A stretch of DNA of 64,000 nt from an uncultured Anaerolineaceae bacterium (GCA_964632355.1 CAZWBW010000001.1:21973-85972); one strand, 5' to 3'; shown: positions 10,687-16,301, counted from the first letter of the stretch. Notes: generated by a model from the sequence alone, not told the origin. Made by a program: numbers and translations.

Positions 10687-10718
10687 GGGGGCGTGCAACC
10701 GCGCGCCCTCGTTTTGCT
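10687..10718 (+). terminator. Imperfect hairpin plus T-tract after thpR
   Basis: GGGGGCGTGC-AACC-GCGCGCCCTC has 2 mismatches and is followed by GTTTTGCTT. It abuts the stop of the convergent S-component gene. Confidence 0.4.
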
Positions 10719-11542
10719 TACCGCAGTTCGAACGTAAAGCGGTCGCGGAAGCGCAGCAGTGCGCGGAGGAGTGGCGCGCCAAGGAACCCGATCACCAGCG
10801 CGTTACACAGGCTTCGCAGCAGGTCCCATCCGAAGCTGGTGAGCAGGTAGTAGTTCCAGTAGCGGCGCAACGTCTCGCCGAAGCCGAGCCCCGGTTCGTA
10901 CGTGATATCGGGGCCGCCCACCCAGAACGGCCAGCTCCACACGTTCGTGATCGCCCCGAAGAGCAGGCCCCACACGGCGCCGAACACCACCAGCAGCGCC
11001 ACTTCGCCCCGGATTCGCAGCCCCATGTGCACGGCCAGCGGGCGCAGGATGCCCGCGTTCATGCCCATCCAGCCGCTTGCGAACATCTGGAATGGGAGCC
11101 ACGGCCCCATCCCGCCGGTCACGACGGCGCTCAGGAAGAACGAGAGCGCGCCGAGCAGGAAGCCCATGCGTGCGCCGAACGCGTAGCTCCCGAGGATGAC
11201 GAGGAAGAAGTAGAGGTTCGCGCCCGCCGGCAGCGTGATCGTCCGCAGGACCGCCGCGAATGCGGAAAGCACGCCGAGCGCCGCCAGTGACTTGCTGTTC
11301 AGTCCGCCGTTCGTCATCTCCGCGACGAGCAGCACCATGCACAGCGTCGCCACCCCCGCGAACACGAGCGGCGCGTCGGTGTTGTGCTCGAACCACCGCG
11401 AATCCGGCCGCGTGACGTCAGACGCGACGAACGGGTGCAGGTACGCAATGAGCCCGAGCAGGTTCAGCGCGACCAGCGTTACGTCGTTGAGTGACATCCG
11501 GGGGAGCCGCAGTGCCGCCGGTACGGGCTGGCTAACCGCCAT
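10718..11542 (-). CDS. ECF-transporter S-component-like multi-pass membrane protein (last gene of the riboswitch operon)
   Basis: About 274 aa counting from the ATG at 11542 (MAVSQP...), which overlaps the upstream gene by 11 nt. The protein is highly hydrophobic with at least 6 TM segments and a GGMGPWLPFQMFASGW motif. The operon context includes EcfT and EcfA-A'. The substrate family cannot be identified by eye. Confidence 0.6.
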   Translation of the reverse strand: MAVSQPVPAALRLPRMSLNDVTLVALNLLGLIAYLHPFVASDVTRPDSRWFEHNTDAPLVFAGVATLCMVLLVAEMTNGGLNSKSLAALGVLSAFAAVLRTITLPAGANLYFFLVILGSYAFGARMGFLLGALSFFLSAVVTGGMGPWLPFQMFASGWMGMNAGILRPLAVHMGLRIRGEVALLVVFGAVWGLLFGAITNVWSWPFWVGGPDITYEPGLGFGETLRRYWNYYLLTSFGWDLLRSLCNALVIGFLGAPLLRALLRFRDRFTFELR

Positions 11543-12197
11543 GACGCCGCCTCCAGGCCACAGCTCCCGCTGTCGCCACCACGAGCACACCCGCGACTGC
11601 CCCGAACGCGATGAGCGGCCCCGTATCCGTCCCCGAGTCGCCACCGTTGACCGCCTCGTCGATGTCGACCACCGCTGTCGTCGGCGCTCCACCGGGAGCC
11701 GCGCTCCGCTGCCCGGGCGGGTGGCCGCACACTTCTTCGAACGTCATATCGACCGGTGCCGGTGCGCTGTTCGGCCCGCCTTCGCCCCACTTGTACGCGT
11801 GCATGTCGCCGTCGCGCAGTCTCGCGTCGTTGAATGCGATCGGGGAGTACGTCCAGCGGTCCTCGCCGTATGGCCGAACGAAGAACGCCCAGTACGTGCA
11901 GTTCGGGCCGCCGGGGCACTGGCAGAAACACTGGCTCATCGAACCGGCGTCGAAGCACCCGATGTCGTCGATCGCGCACAGCGCACGCGATGCCCCGCCG
12001 AACTGCTCGAACGTGTGTCCCGCCGCCCGCAGCGCCTCTTCCCCGGTAATGCTGTCGCCTTCGAACGCGACGCAGTGCGTCTCGATCTCGTCGCCGATCT
12101 GAATGACGATGCCCGCCTCGCCGTCGGCCAGCGCCGCCATTGGGACCAGCCCCGCCAGCATTGCAACGACGGCCGCAGCAATCCGCGCAGCCCTCAT
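11532..12197 (-). CDS. Secreted, C-terminally membrane-anchored Cys-rich protein, DUF4430-like (transcobalamin beta-domain-like)
   Basis: It has a signal peptide (MRAARIAAAVVAMLAGLVPMAALA). The core shows the pattern ITGEEALRAAG...YWAFFV...ARLRDGDMHAYKWG, which resembles DUF4430. There is a six-Cys insert. The C-terminus has a TM helix plus RRRHGG. The start overlaps the ATPase stop by 4 nt. Confidence 0.55.
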   Translation of the reverse strand: MRAARIAAAVVAMLAGLVPMAALADGEAGIVIQIGDEIETHCVAFEGDSITGEEALRAAGHTFEQFGGASRALCAIDDIGCFDAGSMSQCFCQCPGGPNCTYWAFFVRPYGEDRWTYSPIAFNDARLRDGDMHAYKWGEGGPNSAPAPVDMTFEEVCGHPPGQRSAAPGGAPTTAVVDIDEAVNGGDSGTDTGPLIAFGAVAGVLVVATAGAVAWRRRHGG

Positions 12198-13765
12198 ACC
12201 ACGTCCTCCACCAGCATCGCTCCCGGCACGGTGTGCGCGATCTGCGTCGGTCGCGGCCCGCTCGTTCCGAGCGCCTGCCGCACCGGCAGGTCGAACTCGA
12301 CCCGGCCTCCGTCCAGTCCGATGACCCGGGTTGCGAACCGGGCCGCCGCTTCGATGTCATGGGTCGCGACCAGCGCCGCGCCGCCGTCCTCCGCGTGCGC
12401 GCGAAGCCGTTCGCTGAGCGCGAGCTTCGCCGGCCCGTCCATGCCGCGCGTGGGTTCGTCCATCAGCCACACGCGCGGTTCGTGCGCCAGCATCGCGGCC
12501 ATCGCCACGCGCTGCTGCTGCCCGACGCTCAGGTCGCGGGGGTTCCGGTCGGCCAGTTCCGAAACTGCCCACGCGTCGAGCACGCTCGCGGCCTCCGGCG
12601 CCATCCGCCGATGCCGTAGCGTCTCCCGGATCTCGTCGCACACCGTGTCGCGGTACAGCGCGATGGCCGGGTCCTGCGGCACGAGCCCCGCGACCGCTGT
12701 TCGCGCCTGCACCGAGCCGTTCGCCGCCTGTCCGGCGAGGAACACGGTCCCCGCAGCCGGTTGCACGAGTCCCGCGATCGCCCGGAACAGCGTCGACTTC
12801 CCGCTCCCGTTCCGCCCGATGAGCGCCACGATCTCGCCTTCGCGCAGCGAAACTTCCACCTCCTTCAGCGCGATCTGCTCCCCGTAGGCCACCGTCAGCC
12901 CCTCGACCCGGAGCAGTTCGTCGCCCGGCGATGGTGGGTCGTCCGACGCCTTCGCACGAAGCCCGCGGGCCGCGGCCACCTGTTGGCCCTCTTCGACGGT
13001 GAGCGGGAGGGGGTCGAACTCGAACCGCCGCCCGAGTTCGCACACGGGCGGAACCGCCACGAGACGCGCTCCCGCTTCCCGCGGGGTCATCGGCGTGGCG
13101 CGCCCATCCGCTACCTGCAGCACCGCATCGACGCGCGAAAGCAGACGTTCGAGCCGGTGCTCCGCGACGATGACCGTGATCCCGAGCTGTTCCCGCAGTG
13201 CCTCGATGGTGTCGAGTACCGAATTCGCGCCATCCGGGTCCAGCTGCGAGGTTGGCTCGTCGAGCAGCAGCACCTCCGGTTCGAGCGCGAGCACCGCCGC
13301 GATCGCCACCCGCTGCCGCTCCCCGCCCGAGAGCGTCGACAGCCGCCGGTAGCGCAGGTGGTCCACTCCAACGGCAGGCAGCAGCACGTCCAGGCGCCGC
13401 CACATCTCGGCCCGCCGCACGCCGTGCTGCTCCATCCCGAACGCGACTTCGTCTTCGACCGTGTCGGCGACGGCCTGCGCCTCGGGCTCCTGGAACACCA
13501 TGCCCGCGATGGTCGCGACCCGCCGCGCCGGGGTTCGTGTGGGATCGATGCCCGCGACGCGAACGTTCCCGGCGAGCGTGCCCCCGTGGAACTGCGGCAC
13601 CAGGCCGTTGAACAGCCGCAGCAGCGTCGACTTCCCCCCGGCGGATGGCCCCGCGAGCAGCGTCATGGAGCCCCGCTCGGCTTCGAACGAGACGTCGTCA
13701 AGCGCCGGCTGCCCTCGGCCCGGGTACGAGTACGTCACCCGTTCGAGCGAGGCGACGATGCTCAC
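12194..13765 (-). CDS. Fused ECF-transporter ATPase (EcfA-EcfA', two NBDs)
   Basis: There are two Walker A motifs (GPSAGGKST and GRNGSGKST), two signatures (LSGGERQ and LSVGQQQ) and two Walker B motifs (LLLDEPTS and WLMDEPTR). The GTG at 13765 overlaps the EcfT stop (GTGA). The ORF track extension to 14095 lies inside ecfT. Confidence 0.88.
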   Translation of the reverse strand: MSIVASLERVTYSYPGRGQPALDDVSFEAERGSMTLLAGPSAGGKSTLLRLFNGLVPQFHGGTLAGNVRVAGIDPTRTPARRVATIAGMVFQEPEAQAVADTVEDEVAFGMEQHGVRRAEMWRRLDVLLPAVGVDHLRYRRLSTLSGGERQRVAIAAVLALEPEVLLLDEPTSQLDPDGANSVLDTIEALREQLGITVIVAEHRLERLLSRVDAVLQVADGRATPMTPREAGARLVAVPPVCELGRRFEFDPLPLTVEEGQQVAAARGLRAKASDDPPSPGDELLRVEGLTVAYGEQIALKEVEVSLREGEIVALIGRNGSGKSTLFRAIAGLVQPAAGTVFLAGQAANGSVQARTAVAGLVPQDPAIALYRDTVCDEIRETLRHRRMAPEAASVLDAWAVSELADRNPRDLSVGQQQRVAMAAMLAHEPRVWLMDEPTRGMDGPAKLALSERLRAHAEDGGAALVATHDIEAAARFATRVIGLDGGRVEFDLPVRQALGTSGPRPTQIAHTVPGAMLVEDVV

Positions 13766-14862
13766 GGCCGCACCTCCGGTCCGGGCCGAACGGTCGCGGC
13801 GACTGCCGGGGCTTCGGCGTCCACACGTGCCGGTGGACTGAACGCGAGCCGCAGCGCTGGCCACGCAGGCGTCAGCGCCACCAGCGCGCCGGTGATTTCG
13901 AATGACGGCATCGGCAAGCCGGCGAACGGGTTGTATCCCATGTCGAGCCACGCCCCGACGGGCCCGCCAACAGCGGCCACAGCCAGCACTACCGACCCGG
14001 CAATGAGCACACGGTCGACCAGCGGCATCGGTTCGTCGCGGAGGCGGGTGGTCTGGCGTGCGCGCCCGGCGCTCCACGACCAGTAGGCGAGGCACCCCAC
14101 CGCCACCGCGGCCGCGATCACCGCCGGGACGCGAAGCGGCGCGTAGTAGAACCAGCCCACAGCGGCGAAAAGGAGCAGCGGCACCGCCGCCGAGCCGATC
14201 AGCCGCGACGCCCGCGACGCCGGGGGAGACGCTGCGTAGCCCCGTGCTTCCATCGCTTCCGCCAGCCGCATCGATCGTTCGAGTCCGCCGATGACCGACG
14301 GCACAACGAGTGCGGGAATCTGCCGGAACCCGCCCGGCGCGCCGCGCAGCGCGCGCATCTCACGGATGCGCCGCAGGTCCTCGATGCTCGAAGGGAGCAG
14401 CGTCAGCCCGATCGAGACGACGAGGCTGGCGTGGAAGAGCGCCGCCGGCGCGCTTCGAAGCAACTGGTGCGGAGTGACCGCACCGTTGAACACACCGAAC
14501 GCGAGCAGCACGCACAGGATCGCCAGCCCGCGGATCGAGGCGGCCACCAGCCCCTCGGCACTCACCGGCCCGCCCAGCCGGAGGCCGCCCAGCCACTCCG
14601 GCACCTCCGGCCCCGGGATCGTGAACAGGATGTGGTCGCCGTAGTTCCCGTTGATCGTCGCAATGACCAGCGACACCGCGAACATAATCACGCCGAAGAT
14701 CAGCAGCGTCCGGAACCCGGCCACCGCCGTCGAGGTGCGCGGCGCCATTGCCGCCACCAGGAACACGCAGAGCAGGATGATCGCGAGGTAGAACGGGTTG
14801 GAGGTGGACAGCGCCAGCACTCCAACCATCAACACCCACGCGCACCACGCTCCGGTTGTCAT
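13762..14862 (-). CDS. ECF-transporter transmembrane (T) component, CbiQ/EcfT family
   Basis: A 366-aa polytopic membrane protein. It carries the Arg-containing coupling-helix region (RRIREMRALRGA...ERSMRLAEAMEARG) typical of CbiQ/EcfT. Confidence 0.8.
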   Translation of the reverse strand: MTTGAWCAWVLMVGVLALSTSNPFYLAIILLCVFLVAAMAPRTSTAVAGFRTLLIFGVIMFAVSLVIATINGNYGDHILFTIPGPEVPEWLGGLRLGGPVSAEGLVAASIRGLAILCVLLAFGVFNGAVTPHQLLRSAPAALFHASLVVSIGLTLLPSSIEDLRRIREMRALRGAPGGFRQIPALVVPSVIGGLERSMRLAEAMEARGYAASPPASRASRLIGSAAVPLLLFAAVGWFYYAPLRVPAVIAAAVAVGCLAYWSWSAGRARQTTRLRDEPMPLVDRVLIAGSVVLAVAAVGGPVGAWLDMGYNPFAGLPMPSFEITGALVALTPAWPALRLAFSPPARVDAEAPAVAATVRPGPEVRP

Positions 14863-14874
14863 CGCTGTGCTCGC

Positions 14875-15975
14875 TTACCGCCGCATCCGCAGGATGCCGA
14901 ACCCGCCGCCCACAACCACGACGACAACGGCCACGCCGCCCAGGATCCACGGCAACGCGCTGTCCGAATCGTCCGTGGAGTCCGTGTCAGCGCCCCCGGT
15001 GCTCTCGGGTGCGTCGTCGCCCGGTGCTCCCTCGCTCGACCTCGCGTCGGGAGTGTCATCGGCCGGCGCGGCAATCGCGGTCTCCGCCGAGTCGCAAAGC
15101 GTGCGGCCGGCCAGAGCCGGTACCACCTGCATCGCCGCATAGGCCGGGTCGAATCCCGCGAACGACCCGTCCGGTTGCTGCTGCGACAGCAGGAAATCGA
15201 CCGGCGTCTGATCGCCCTTCGTGTACGGGTCGGCCTCCGGGTTCTCGCCGGCCGCAATCAGCGCCTGCACCACGTATGAAGTCGAGGACGCGTTCGACGT
15301 GTCGTCGCCGGGGAATCCCCAGCCGCCATCCTCGCCCTGCGTGCCACGGAAGTACTCGACGGTCTCGGCCACATCCGGGTCGTTCGCCGGCACGCCGGCC
15401 GCGAGCATCGCCTGCACGACCACGGCCGTGGTGTCCGGGTCGCTCGCCCCTTCGTACCCCCAGCCGCCGTCGTCGAGCTGGGCCTCGCGAAGGACCGTCA
15501 CGGCCGTTTCTGGCACGTCGTTCCCCGTGCACGCGAGCCCAATGACGACGACTGCGTGGCTGAAGTCGTCCGGCGCGTATCGTCCCGTCGCGTCGTCGAA
15601 TGCGTCGGTCATCGCCGCGACGAAGTCCGTTCCGCCAGTCGACCTGGGGTCGAGATCGAGCGCCTTCGCAGCCAGGGCTGCCTTCGCTGCCAGCGCCGGG
15701 CTCTCGGCTGCGACCGCCGCGGCCTGGGCTTCGAGATAGTCAGCCGGGTTCGTCCCGGCGTTCGCAACCTCCGACGGGTCACGGCCCGCCGCTCGGATAG
15801 CAAGAATCGCGTCAAACGTCTGCCCGGGACCGAACCCACCGAACCCGCCGTCGGGTTCCTGCGTCGAGATGATGAACTCGACCGCGCTGTCGATGGACTC
15901 ATCGGGACCCTGGGCAATCGCAACCACTGACCACAGGGCAGAAAGCCCCGCGGCGAGGAGAAGTAGCGCGCGCAT
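14875..15975 (-). CDS. Cell-surface protein of prenyltransferase/squalene-cyclase repeats (alpha/alpha toroid), C-terminally anchored
   Basis: The ATG at 15975 has AGGAG 5 nt upstream. There is a signal peptide (MRALLLLAAGLSALWSVVAIAQG). The repeats are QEPDGGFGG, QLDDGGWGY, QGEDGGWGF and QQPDGSFAG. An acidic linker is followed by a TM helix and LRMRR. Confidence 0.75.
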   Translation of the reverse strand: MRALLLLAAGLSALWSVVAIAQGPDESIDSAVEFIISTQEPDGGFGGFGPGQTFDAILAIRAAGRDPSEVANAGTNPADYLEAQAAAVAAESPALAAKAALAAKALDLDPRSTGGTDFVAAMTDAFDDATGRYAPDDFSHAVVVIGLACTGNDVPETAVTVLREAQLDDGGWGYEGASDPDTTAVVVQAMLAAGVPANDPDVAETVEYFRGTQGEDGGWGFPGDDTSNASSTSYVVQALIAAGENPEADPYTKGDQTPVDFLLSQQQPDGSFAGFDPAYAAMQVVPALAGRTLCDSAETAIAAPADDTPDARSSEGAPGDDAPESTGGADTDSTDDSDSALPWILGGVAVVVVVVGGGFGILRMRR

Positions 15976-16038
15976 GGAAACTCCTGGGGAAATGAGCAGG
16001 CCTGCATGTCGGCCTGCGGGCGGATGGGGGATCAAGAA

Positions 16039-16060
16039 AGCCCGCCTTGGAGGGCGGGCT
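16039..16060 (-). terminator. Riboswitch expression-platform terminator hairpin
   Basis: On the minus strand, AGCCCGCC-CTCCAA-GGCGGGCT is followed by TTCTTGAT. It lies between the aptamer and the operon start codon. Confidence 0.5.
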
Positions 16061-16121
16061 GGTTACGTGGATCGGGTGATCATCGTTTCCGGCCCCTTTC
16101 TCTCGAAGGTTTACGGAACTC

Positions 16122-16216
16122 TGAGCAGATGGACGGGTAACCTGGCTCCGCCCCGGAGGGCGATACAGTTGCGGGACAGCGCCGGCCTCTCACCGGCTTC
16201 CCCCGTCAGCTCCCGC
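16122..16216 (-). promoter_or_regulatory. Cobalamin (B12) riboswitch aptamer
   Basis: The minus strand reads GGGAGCUGACGGGGGAAGCCGGUGAGAGGCCGGCGCUGUCCCGCAACUGUAUCGCCCUCCGGGGCGGAGCCAGGUUACCCGUCCAUCUGCUC. It contains the conserved core GGGAA..CGGUGA....CCG.CGCUG.CCCGCAACUGUA. It also has a B12-box-like GAGCCAGGUUACCCGUC that can pair with the 5' GACGGGG. Confidence 0.8.
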
Positions 16217-16301
16217 GCGCGTGGCGCGGGACATCTGCGTATTCAGTTGTCCAAGCGAACAATGCCGCCTGCACGCGCTTCCGGTCAAGCCTCGGCAAGG
16301 T

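Follow-up and report, generated by a model that had tools for sequence, protein, structure and literature searches.

A probable corrinoid importer of the ECF type with two transcobalamin-like surface proteins, encoded behind a cobalamin riboswitch in an uncultured Anaerolineaceae bacterium

Introduction

Corrinoid exchange shapes microbial communities, and the routes of corrinoid uptake are poorly known in monoderm phyla outside the Firmicutes. [quoted passage not shown] The present contribution deals with an operon in a 64-kb stretch of DNA from an uncultured Anaerolineaceae bacterium (Chloroflexota); this whole stretch is referred to as the window. The operon follows a cobalamin riboswitch and encodes an ECF transporter together with two proteins predicted to be tethered to the cell surface, an alpha6/alpha6 toroid and a cysteine-rich (Cys-rich) protein.

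The closest described systems come from three lines of work. Transcobalamin's C-terminal domain was assigned to the beta-grasp fold (SLBB) by Burroughs et al. (2007; PMC1796856), who reported many bacterial members that are secreted or surface-anchored, often joined in one chain with an alpha/alpha toroid that may stand on either side. Their genes share operons with those for CbiO-like ATPases and for membrane proteins resembling CbiQ; B12 scavenging was predicted for these proteins and the clade was presented as a Gram-positive innovation. Verplaetse et al. (2019; bioRxiv 10.1101/864751) described the genes lsa1836-1840 of L. sakei, which encode an S component, a fused EcfA-A' ATPase, EcfT and secreted beta-like and alpha-like proteins. 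The alpha-like/beta-like pair was proposed to form an extracellular heterodimer that supplies the ECF transporter, and deletion of lsa1836-1840 lowered haem uptake (10.1101/864751). ECF-CbrT (structure 6FNP) of Lactobacillus delbrueckii imports vitamin B12 and cobinamide, and in proteoliposomes it moves cobalamin and cobinamide without an accessory protein (Santos et al. 2018, PMC5997447). A preliminary description of the present locus had held that a capture module of two polypeptides, coupled to an ECF importer, was uncharacterised. This part of it has to be given up, as such a module was predicted in 2007 (PMC1796856), and its description in L. sakei followed in 2019 (10.1101/864751). The operon of the window is a Chloroflexota member of this already proposed class, in which transcobalamin-like surface proteins in split form accompany a dedicated ECF importer.

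Results

An operon behind a cobalamin riboswitch

Five tightly coupled genes follow one another on the minus strand in the order toroid, EcfT, EcfA-A', Cys-rich protein and S component. Together with their leader they probably constitute a riboswitch-repressed, dedicated (group I) ECF corrinoid importer with two surface-tethered transcobalamin-like proteins. The elements are listed here with their lengths in amino acids (aa) and the evidence for each; AF2 denotes AlphaFold2 models.

16115..16253, minus strand: cobalamin riboswitch aptamer (RF00174, 52.9 bits against a gathering threshold of 31.5, E 2.5e-10, full model 1-189)
16029..16060, minus strand: terminator-like hairpin of the leader with T-rich tail, the probable expression platform (consensus scan, folding)
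14875..15975, minus strand: secreted, C-terminally anchored alpha6/alpha6 toroid, 366 aa, SCO2321-like and similar to the transcobalamin alpha domain (Pfam, AF2, Foldseek)
13762..14862, minus strand: EcfT (T component), 366 aa (PF02361 CbiQ, 23.2 bits; solved EcfT chains)
12194..13765, minus strand: fused EcfA-A' ATPase with two ABC domains, 523 aa (PF00005; ECF_ATPase_1/2)
11532..12197, minus strand: secreted, anchored Cys-rich protein, 221 aa, divergent DUF4430-like (SCO2322-like, PF28005) with a Cys-rich insert (hhalign, AF2)
10718..11542, minus strand: ECF S component, CbrT-like, 274 aa (PF12822, 53 bits)

That a five-gene ECF operon stands behind a B12 riboswitch had been proposed in the preliminary description, and the Rfam search, the Pfam and NCBIfam searches and the direct reading of the junctions agree on it. 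An AGGAG ribosome-binding site lies upstream of the toroid ATG at 15975; the toroid gene ends with TAA at 14877-14875 and is followed after 12 nt by the EcfT ATG at 14862, as read directly. The EcfT stop and the GTG start of the ATPase gene overlap as GTGA (13765-13762), start and stop overlap as ATGA at the junction of the ATPase and Cys-rich genes (12197-12194), and the S-component ATG at 11542 and the TAG of the Cys-rich gene at 11534-11532 give an overlap of 11 nt. These three overlaps had been claimed before, and each can be read in the sequence. The proposed extent of 10718-16225 was correct for the genes and their order and too short at its upper end, where the aptamer reaches 28 nt past 16225. 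The riboswitch itself had likewise been predicted; its score exceeds the gathering threshold of RF00174 (52.9 versus 31.5 bits), and it is the sole Rfam match in the window.

Downstream of the aptamer and ahead of the first gene lies a hairpin (16060-16039, minus strand) formed by AGCCCGCC..GGCGGGCT and followed by TTCTTG. The consensus scan describes it as 8 pairs, 7 of them G-C, and then TTCTTGATCC, and the hairpin is present in both the minimum-free-energy and the centroid fold of the leader. Riboswitch control through transcription termination is accordingly what the leader would be predicted to exert.

The ECF transporter

S component, T component and two ABC domains are encoded in one operon, which is the arrangement of a dedicated (group I) ECF transporter. 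EcfT scores slightly below the cut-off of PF02361 (23.2 versus 25 bits) and matches the solved EcfT chains 5d3m_D, 4hzu_T and 4huq_T (E 0.0015-0.002). The ATPase matches PF00005 (ABC_tran) with 196 bits in two stretches (Pfam), and the NCBIfam models ECF_ATPase_1 and ECF_ATPase_2 with 309 and 291 bits, again in two stretches each. An operon of the L. sakei type was recovered in Latilactobacillus curvatus (locus L071), and its parts are recognisable relatives of those in the window: the S component of this DUF4430/ECF operon shares 30% identity with ours (E 2e-16), EcfT (annotated as such) matches at E 1e-10 and the toroid at E 1e-8, and the beta parts show their relationship in profile comparison.

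An S-component-like polytopic protein had been postulated for the last gene, in line with the 53 bits of PF12822 and with a family profile that is closest to CbrT. For this profile, which was built from 15 orthologues, the best solved relative is 6fnp_A (ECF-CbrT; E 6.1e-7, 32 bits), and all other solved S components have E>2 against it; the window sequence alone, used without the profile, gave no match. The S component is thus related to CbrT by sequence, and transport of cobalamin or cobinamide is predicted for it. Cobalt transporters are commonly under the control of B12 riboswitches as well, for example the CbiMNQO systems. A reading of the operon as a cobalt transporter was rejected, because the S component is nearest to CbrT and no CbiM or CbiN match was found for it in Pfam.

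The toroid protein

The best Pfam match of the toroid protein is SQHop_cyclase_C (50.8 bits), accompanied by SQHop_cyclase_N and Prenyltrans. With the NCBIfam model SCO2321_fam (NF053823) it scores 101 bits, below the cut-off of 300, and hence belongs to a related family and is not a member. The four repeat motifs named in the preliminary description were all located in the protein (QEPDGGFG, QLDDGGWG, QGEDGGWG and QQPDGSFA at residues 39, 166, 213 and 266). The AF2 model (pLDDT 88) comprises 12 helices and forms one alpha6/alpha6 barrel. Searched with Foldseek, this model matches squalene-hopene and related cyclases best (1e-7); it also matches transcobalamin (1.2e-5, TM-score 0.51) and intrinsic factor (3e-4) at 12-16% sequence identity, the values for these two carriers ranging overall from E 1e-5 to 1e-3 at a TM-score of about 0.5. 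The proposed resemblance to the transcobalamin alpha domain is therefore present in the model, with cyclases matching at least equally well. The family PF01122 (Cobalamin_bind) is matched by 25 of 36 toroid relatives at E<=0.1, in all cases below threshold and at best with 8.5e-7.

Hydrophobic segments of the toroid are confined to residues 1-23 and 337-365. Both extracytoplasmic proteins of the operon have exactly two such segments, an N-terminal one that is signal-like and a C-terminal one with a basic tail. In most toroid homologues (alignment A2) the C-terminal hydrophobic helix with its basic tail is preceded, at a distance of about 10-20 residues, by a conserved PPxTG[ST]G motif, and this motif resembles the LPXTG sortase signal. 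In the toroid of the window (14875-15030) it is degenerate, reading PESTGG, and is followed by an acidic spacer.

The kinship with cyclases raises the question whether the toroid is an enzyme, a class II terpene cyclase or a prenyltransferase-like protein that acts on an envelope lipid and stands in the operon incidentally. Squalene-hopene and related cyclases do provide the top matches in Pfam, in the PDB and in Foldseek. However, the protein has only one barrel, made of 12 helices and about 300 aa long, where a cyclase has two domains, the catalytic DxDD motif was not found in it, and its scores with the NCBIfam cyclase models (56 bits with TIGR01507, 61 bits with TIGR01787) contrast with cut-offs of 431 and 323. 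It is, moreover, predicted to be secreted and anchored outside the cell and is always linked to a B12 riboswitch and ECF genes. We regard an enzymatic function as highly improbable, and assignment as a class II terpene cyclase was rejected for the single barrel, the missing DxDD motif and the scores far below the cut-offs. The protein is instead probably a secreted toroid of the binding type, which is compatible with the role of a transcobalamin alpha domain but not specific to one.

The Cys-rich protein

The precomputed label of the Cys-rich protein is PF28005, which is catalogued apart from DUF4430. With the NCBIfam model SCO2322_fam (NF040672) it scores 19 bits against a cut-off of 85 and represents a related family rather than a member; all 40 sampled Cys-rich relatives match this model below its cut-off as well. 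The family is large: clustering at 50% identity leaves at least 2,730 clusters (E<=1e-3).

The preliminary description took the core of the protein for DUF4430. This core, 30 close relatives and 40 distant ones all lack a match to the Pfam model of that family, PF14478 (E limits 0.01 to 10), with which the beta domain of human TCN2, used as a positive control, scores 29 bits. For a comparison of profiles, DUF4430 sequences were collected from annotated genes in plasmid records (14 bacterial domains) and complemented by three eukaryotic domains. A DUF4430-like consensus, which matched TCN2 and haptocorrin in the PDB, served as a tblastn probe only and was excluded from the compared alignments. 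PF14478 is matched by 16 of the 16 template sequences. In hhalign, the Cys-rich family (154 sequences) aligned with this set over 101 columns with 93.1% probability (E 3.2e-7); the value was 91.4% with the bacterial DUF4430 sequences alone and 94.1% (E 1.3e-7) with independent MAFFT alignments. Among the controls, which were reversed profiles, 30 shuffles of the columns and two unrelated profiles, no value exceeded 0.4%. The link to DUF4430 is visible only by profile-profile comparison; the Pfam model misses the Cys-rich family.

Other approaches gave no match. This holds for the PDB profile search with the Cys-rich protein; the family hidden Markov model scored only about 0-5 bits with the TCN2 and TC1 sequences, and hhalign with a narrow TCN2 beta alignment of mammalian sequences gave 0.1%, a template whose depth (Neff 1.5) was insufficient for an informative comparison. 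A homologue search with the TCN2 beta domain returned mammalian fragments only, and no bridging sequences between the Cys-rich family and DUF4430 occurred among the best 150 representative matches, all of which are close relatives. The AF2 model (pLDDT 85) has the element order b-b-a-b-b-(insert)-b-b, which agrees with the description of the transcobalamin-type beta-grasp (PMC1796856). In the alignment, the Cys-rich segment (CFDAG..CFCQCPGGPNC) is inserted after the post-helix hairpin and before the conserved W-strand. Six of the eight cysteines of the protein are conserved in the family and would fit three disulfides in a secreted domain.

Judged by these alignments, the Cys-rich protein is a divergent DUF4430/SLBB (transcobalamin beta-like) homologue that lies outside PF14478 as modelled. 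The earlier assignment thus holds for homology (hhalign 93-94%, with clean controls) and fails for a Pfam DUF4430 match, of which there is none up to E 10. A large family annotated as 'hypothetical' or 'SCO2322-like' is thereby tied to the transcobalamin beta domain.

At the C-terminus (11532-11650) a WRRRHG tail is strongly conserved across the family, and the NCBIfam sorting domain GVDTG_CTERM gives 17.6 bits there, below its cut-off of 29. This C-terminus may be a dedicated sorting signal instead of a plain anchor.

Conservation of the locus and the question of the substrate

A survey limited to one genome per species yielded 68 loci with a gene of the Cys-rich family. They are mostly from Chloroflexota, namely Dehalococcoidia/Tepidiformales (including the cultured Tepidiforma flava), Thermoflexaceae and Caldilineales, and a few are labelled only 'bacterium'. 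All five genes are present in 43 of the 68 loci. The order of the window is kept in 41, and two Caldilineales loci have the genes rearranged to toroid, Cys-rich protein, S component, EcfT and EcfA-A'. Another 23 loci are interrupted by contig ends and are consistent with the window order, and two (L036 and L068) have a solitary Cys-rich gene. A cobalamin riboswitch (RF00174 or RF01689) heads 29 of the 30 loci that were scanned with Rfam, including both solitary genes. The expectation that toroid, Cys-rich and ECF genes co-occur behind B12 riboswitches was thus borne out, by the 43 five-gene loci and by the riboswitch at 29 of 30.

The same transporter could in principle serve another substrate, either haem as in L. 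sakei or cobalt or nickel as in CbiMNQO systems, and the surface proteins would then capture that ligand. Such a view can point to the L. sakei system, which has the same five-part design and whose deletion (lsa1836-1840) cut haem uptake (10.1101/864751), to the L. curvatus homologue without a riboswitch and to the eight cysteines of the Cys-rich protein. It is at odds with the B12 riboswitch at 29 of 30 loci and with an S component nearest to CbrT that has no CbiM/CbiN match; furthermore, each of the two accessory domains shows homology to domains that bind corrinoids, and six conserved cysteines suit three disulfides better than metal thiolates. The near-obligate control by B12 riboswitches therefore favours a corrinoid over haem as the substrate here, and we consider a different substrate unlikely.

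Several loci have a ZMP/ZTP riboswitch (RF01750, 50-60 bits) directly 3' of the S-component gene, where it heads the next gene (L035 8713-8802, L040 8638-8720 and L061 8647-8736, plus strand; L051 10741-10821 and L056 2773-2855); the Rfam scan detected no RF01750 in the window. A search for toroids in plasmids found one further case in Embleya sp. NBC_00888 (L069 6514-7849), in which a cobalamin riboswitch matched by a partial model (36.8 bits) precedes a SCO2321-like toroid. An open reading frame of about 1,900 aa follows this toroid, and ECF genes were not seen in the next 7 kb.

Natural fusions and solitary genes

In some genomes parts of the system are fused. One protein architecture consists of two Cys-rich domains followed by a toroid (P0204 and P0227, one of them from a Caldilineaceae metagenome-assembled genome). 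In another, a Cys-rich domain, a transmembrane helix and an S component form an uninterrupted open reading frame of 522 aa (L060 6929-8497, plus strand, Tepidiformaceae chromosome OY282446.1), and the Cys-rich/S-component fusion is found again in protein P0206. In the window, the two corresponding genes are in different frames and share 11 nt, and a frame-restoring indel could make or undo this fusion. In Streptomyces sp. SAT1 a protein of 911 aa, which comprises a SCO2322-like domain and two toroids, is encoded behind a B12 riboswitch; then come genes for another SCO2322-like protein, for EcfT and for an ABC ATPase. The fusions of the Cys-rich domain both to the S component and to the toroid argue for direct cooperation of these parts.

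They also bear on the possibility that the ECF core imports corrinoids alone, and that the surface proteins are no trap but have another B12-related function at the envelope, such as storing corrinoids or keeping them from competitors, remodelling, or stabilising the transporter. ECF-CbrT indeed needs no accessory protein in proteoliposomes (PMC5997447), and in L036 and L068 a lone Cys-rich gene stands behind a B12 riboswitch in the absence of ECF genes. Against this, the five genes are strictly linked in 43 loci, and the Cys-rich domain is fused in frame to the S component and, in other proteins, to the toroid. An ECF core that acts on its own appears doubtful to us.

The two solitary genes differ in their surroundings, both of which are without toroid and ECF genes. 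In L036 (3788-4927) CofD- and CofC-like genes come after the lone Cys-rich gene behind the cobalamin riboswitch. In L068 (6194-7414) a 302-aa protein, likewise encoded behind a cobalamin riboswitch, has the Cys-rich domain as its C-terminal half, and a pilin-like N_methyl/DUF1559 gene adjoins it.

Discussion

The proposed split transcobalamin-like surface trap beside an ECF importer is supported by the toroid model, by hhalign, by the CbrT-like S component and by the linkage to the riboswitch. We envisage the following sequence of events. At a low intracellular level of coenzyme B12 the leader would be read through at the terminator and the operon would be expressed. The two ectodomains would then jointly clamp an external corrinoid, in the manner of the alpha and beta domains of transcobalamin, and the pair would hand it to the adjoining S component. 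Import would be carried out by the EcfT-EcfAA' module at the expense of ATP. Binding by the pair and the hand-over are predicted steps, and the exact substrate may be cobalamin, cobinamide or another cobamide. We lean slightly towards the more specific assumption that the toroid and the Cys-rich protein act as a two-chain bacterial 'transcobalamin' which passes corrinoids to the CbrT-like S component, and that the ECF transporter depends on both.

Several findings weigh against a corrinoid importer with transcobalamin-like surface proteins. The toroid model is at least as similar to squalene-hopene cyclases as it is to transcobalamin, and the toroid of the window has no match to PF01122 at E<=0.1. 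The Cys-rich protein of the window is not matched by PF14478 even at E 10, and a Foldseek search of its AF2 model against the PDB gave nothing significant, transcobalamin beta included (best E 0.37). The T-tract of the putative terminator (TTCTTG) is weak. The only homologous system that has been studied genetically, lsa1836-1840 of L. sakei, is linked to haem and not to B12, and no B12 riboswitch was found at the L. curvatus operon. Finally, the literature examined yielded neither biochemical corrinoid binding by any member of the class nor binding or transport for the Cys-rich family.

If the two-chain mechanism is true, it would amount to a widespread and hitherto unrecognised route of corrinoid scavenging in monoderm Chloroflexota and Actinomycetota. 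This type of operon provides a candidate importer, predicted to be B12-regulated, for Chloroflexota, including the cultured Tepidiforma, and for some Streptomycetaceae. It is a concrete candidate case of extracytoplasmic ligand capture that would supply an ECF transporter, and not a new category of system.

Comparison with known systems

The proteins described by Burroughs et al. (PMC1796856) have in common with the window a secreted or surface-anchored domain related to the transcobalamin beta domain and a toroid, there frequently fused to it or encoded by a neighbouring gene, beside genes of the CbiO/CbiQ type; the Cys-rich subfamily of Chloroflexota and Actinomycetota, the linkage to riboswitches and the S component are not covered there. 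The system of L. sakei and L. curvatus has the same five parts as the window, with alpha and beta as separate proteins. The gene order differs, being toroid, beta, EcfT, EcfA-A' and S component in L. curvatus and toroid, EcfT, EcfA-A', beta and S component in the window. The beta protein is a canonical DUF4430 protein in the Lactobacillus type, whereas that of the window is Cys-rich, divergent and missed by the Pfam DUF4430 model. The L. curvatus toroid is anchored by an annotated LPXTG signal, that of the window by a C-terminal transmembrane helix.

On a plasmid of Lentilactobacillus kefiri a B12 riboswitch is located upstream of DUF4430 genes. In two lactobacillus plasmids (L073 3391-4437 and L075 3383-4435) the DUF4430 gene is directly preceded by a gene annotated as 'fucose-binding lectin II'. 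In L075 this lectin gene in turn comes directly after the genes for EcfT, the ABC ATPase and the S component, and in L073 the genes come after a B12 riboswitch. The alpha partner of the capture module may be replaceable.

ECF-CbrT relies on a shared (group II) module, in contrast to the dedicated operon of the window with its fused ATPase and two surface proteins, and the S component of the window is about 90 aa longer than CbrT owing to an N-terminal extension and an internal insert. From the eukaryotic proteins of PF01122 the window differs both in family match and in architecture, which in those proteins is a single chain of alpha and beta domains. Mammalian transcobalamin, intrinsic factor and haptocorrin unite an alpha6/alpha6 toroid and a small beta-grasp domain in this way and deliver to endocytic receptors, whereas the window encodes two membrane-tethered polypeptides together with an ECF transporter. 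Within its class the operon is distinguished by a Cys-rich, divergent beta domain, by C-terminal helix anchors, by its gene order and by near-obligate control through a B12 riboswitch.

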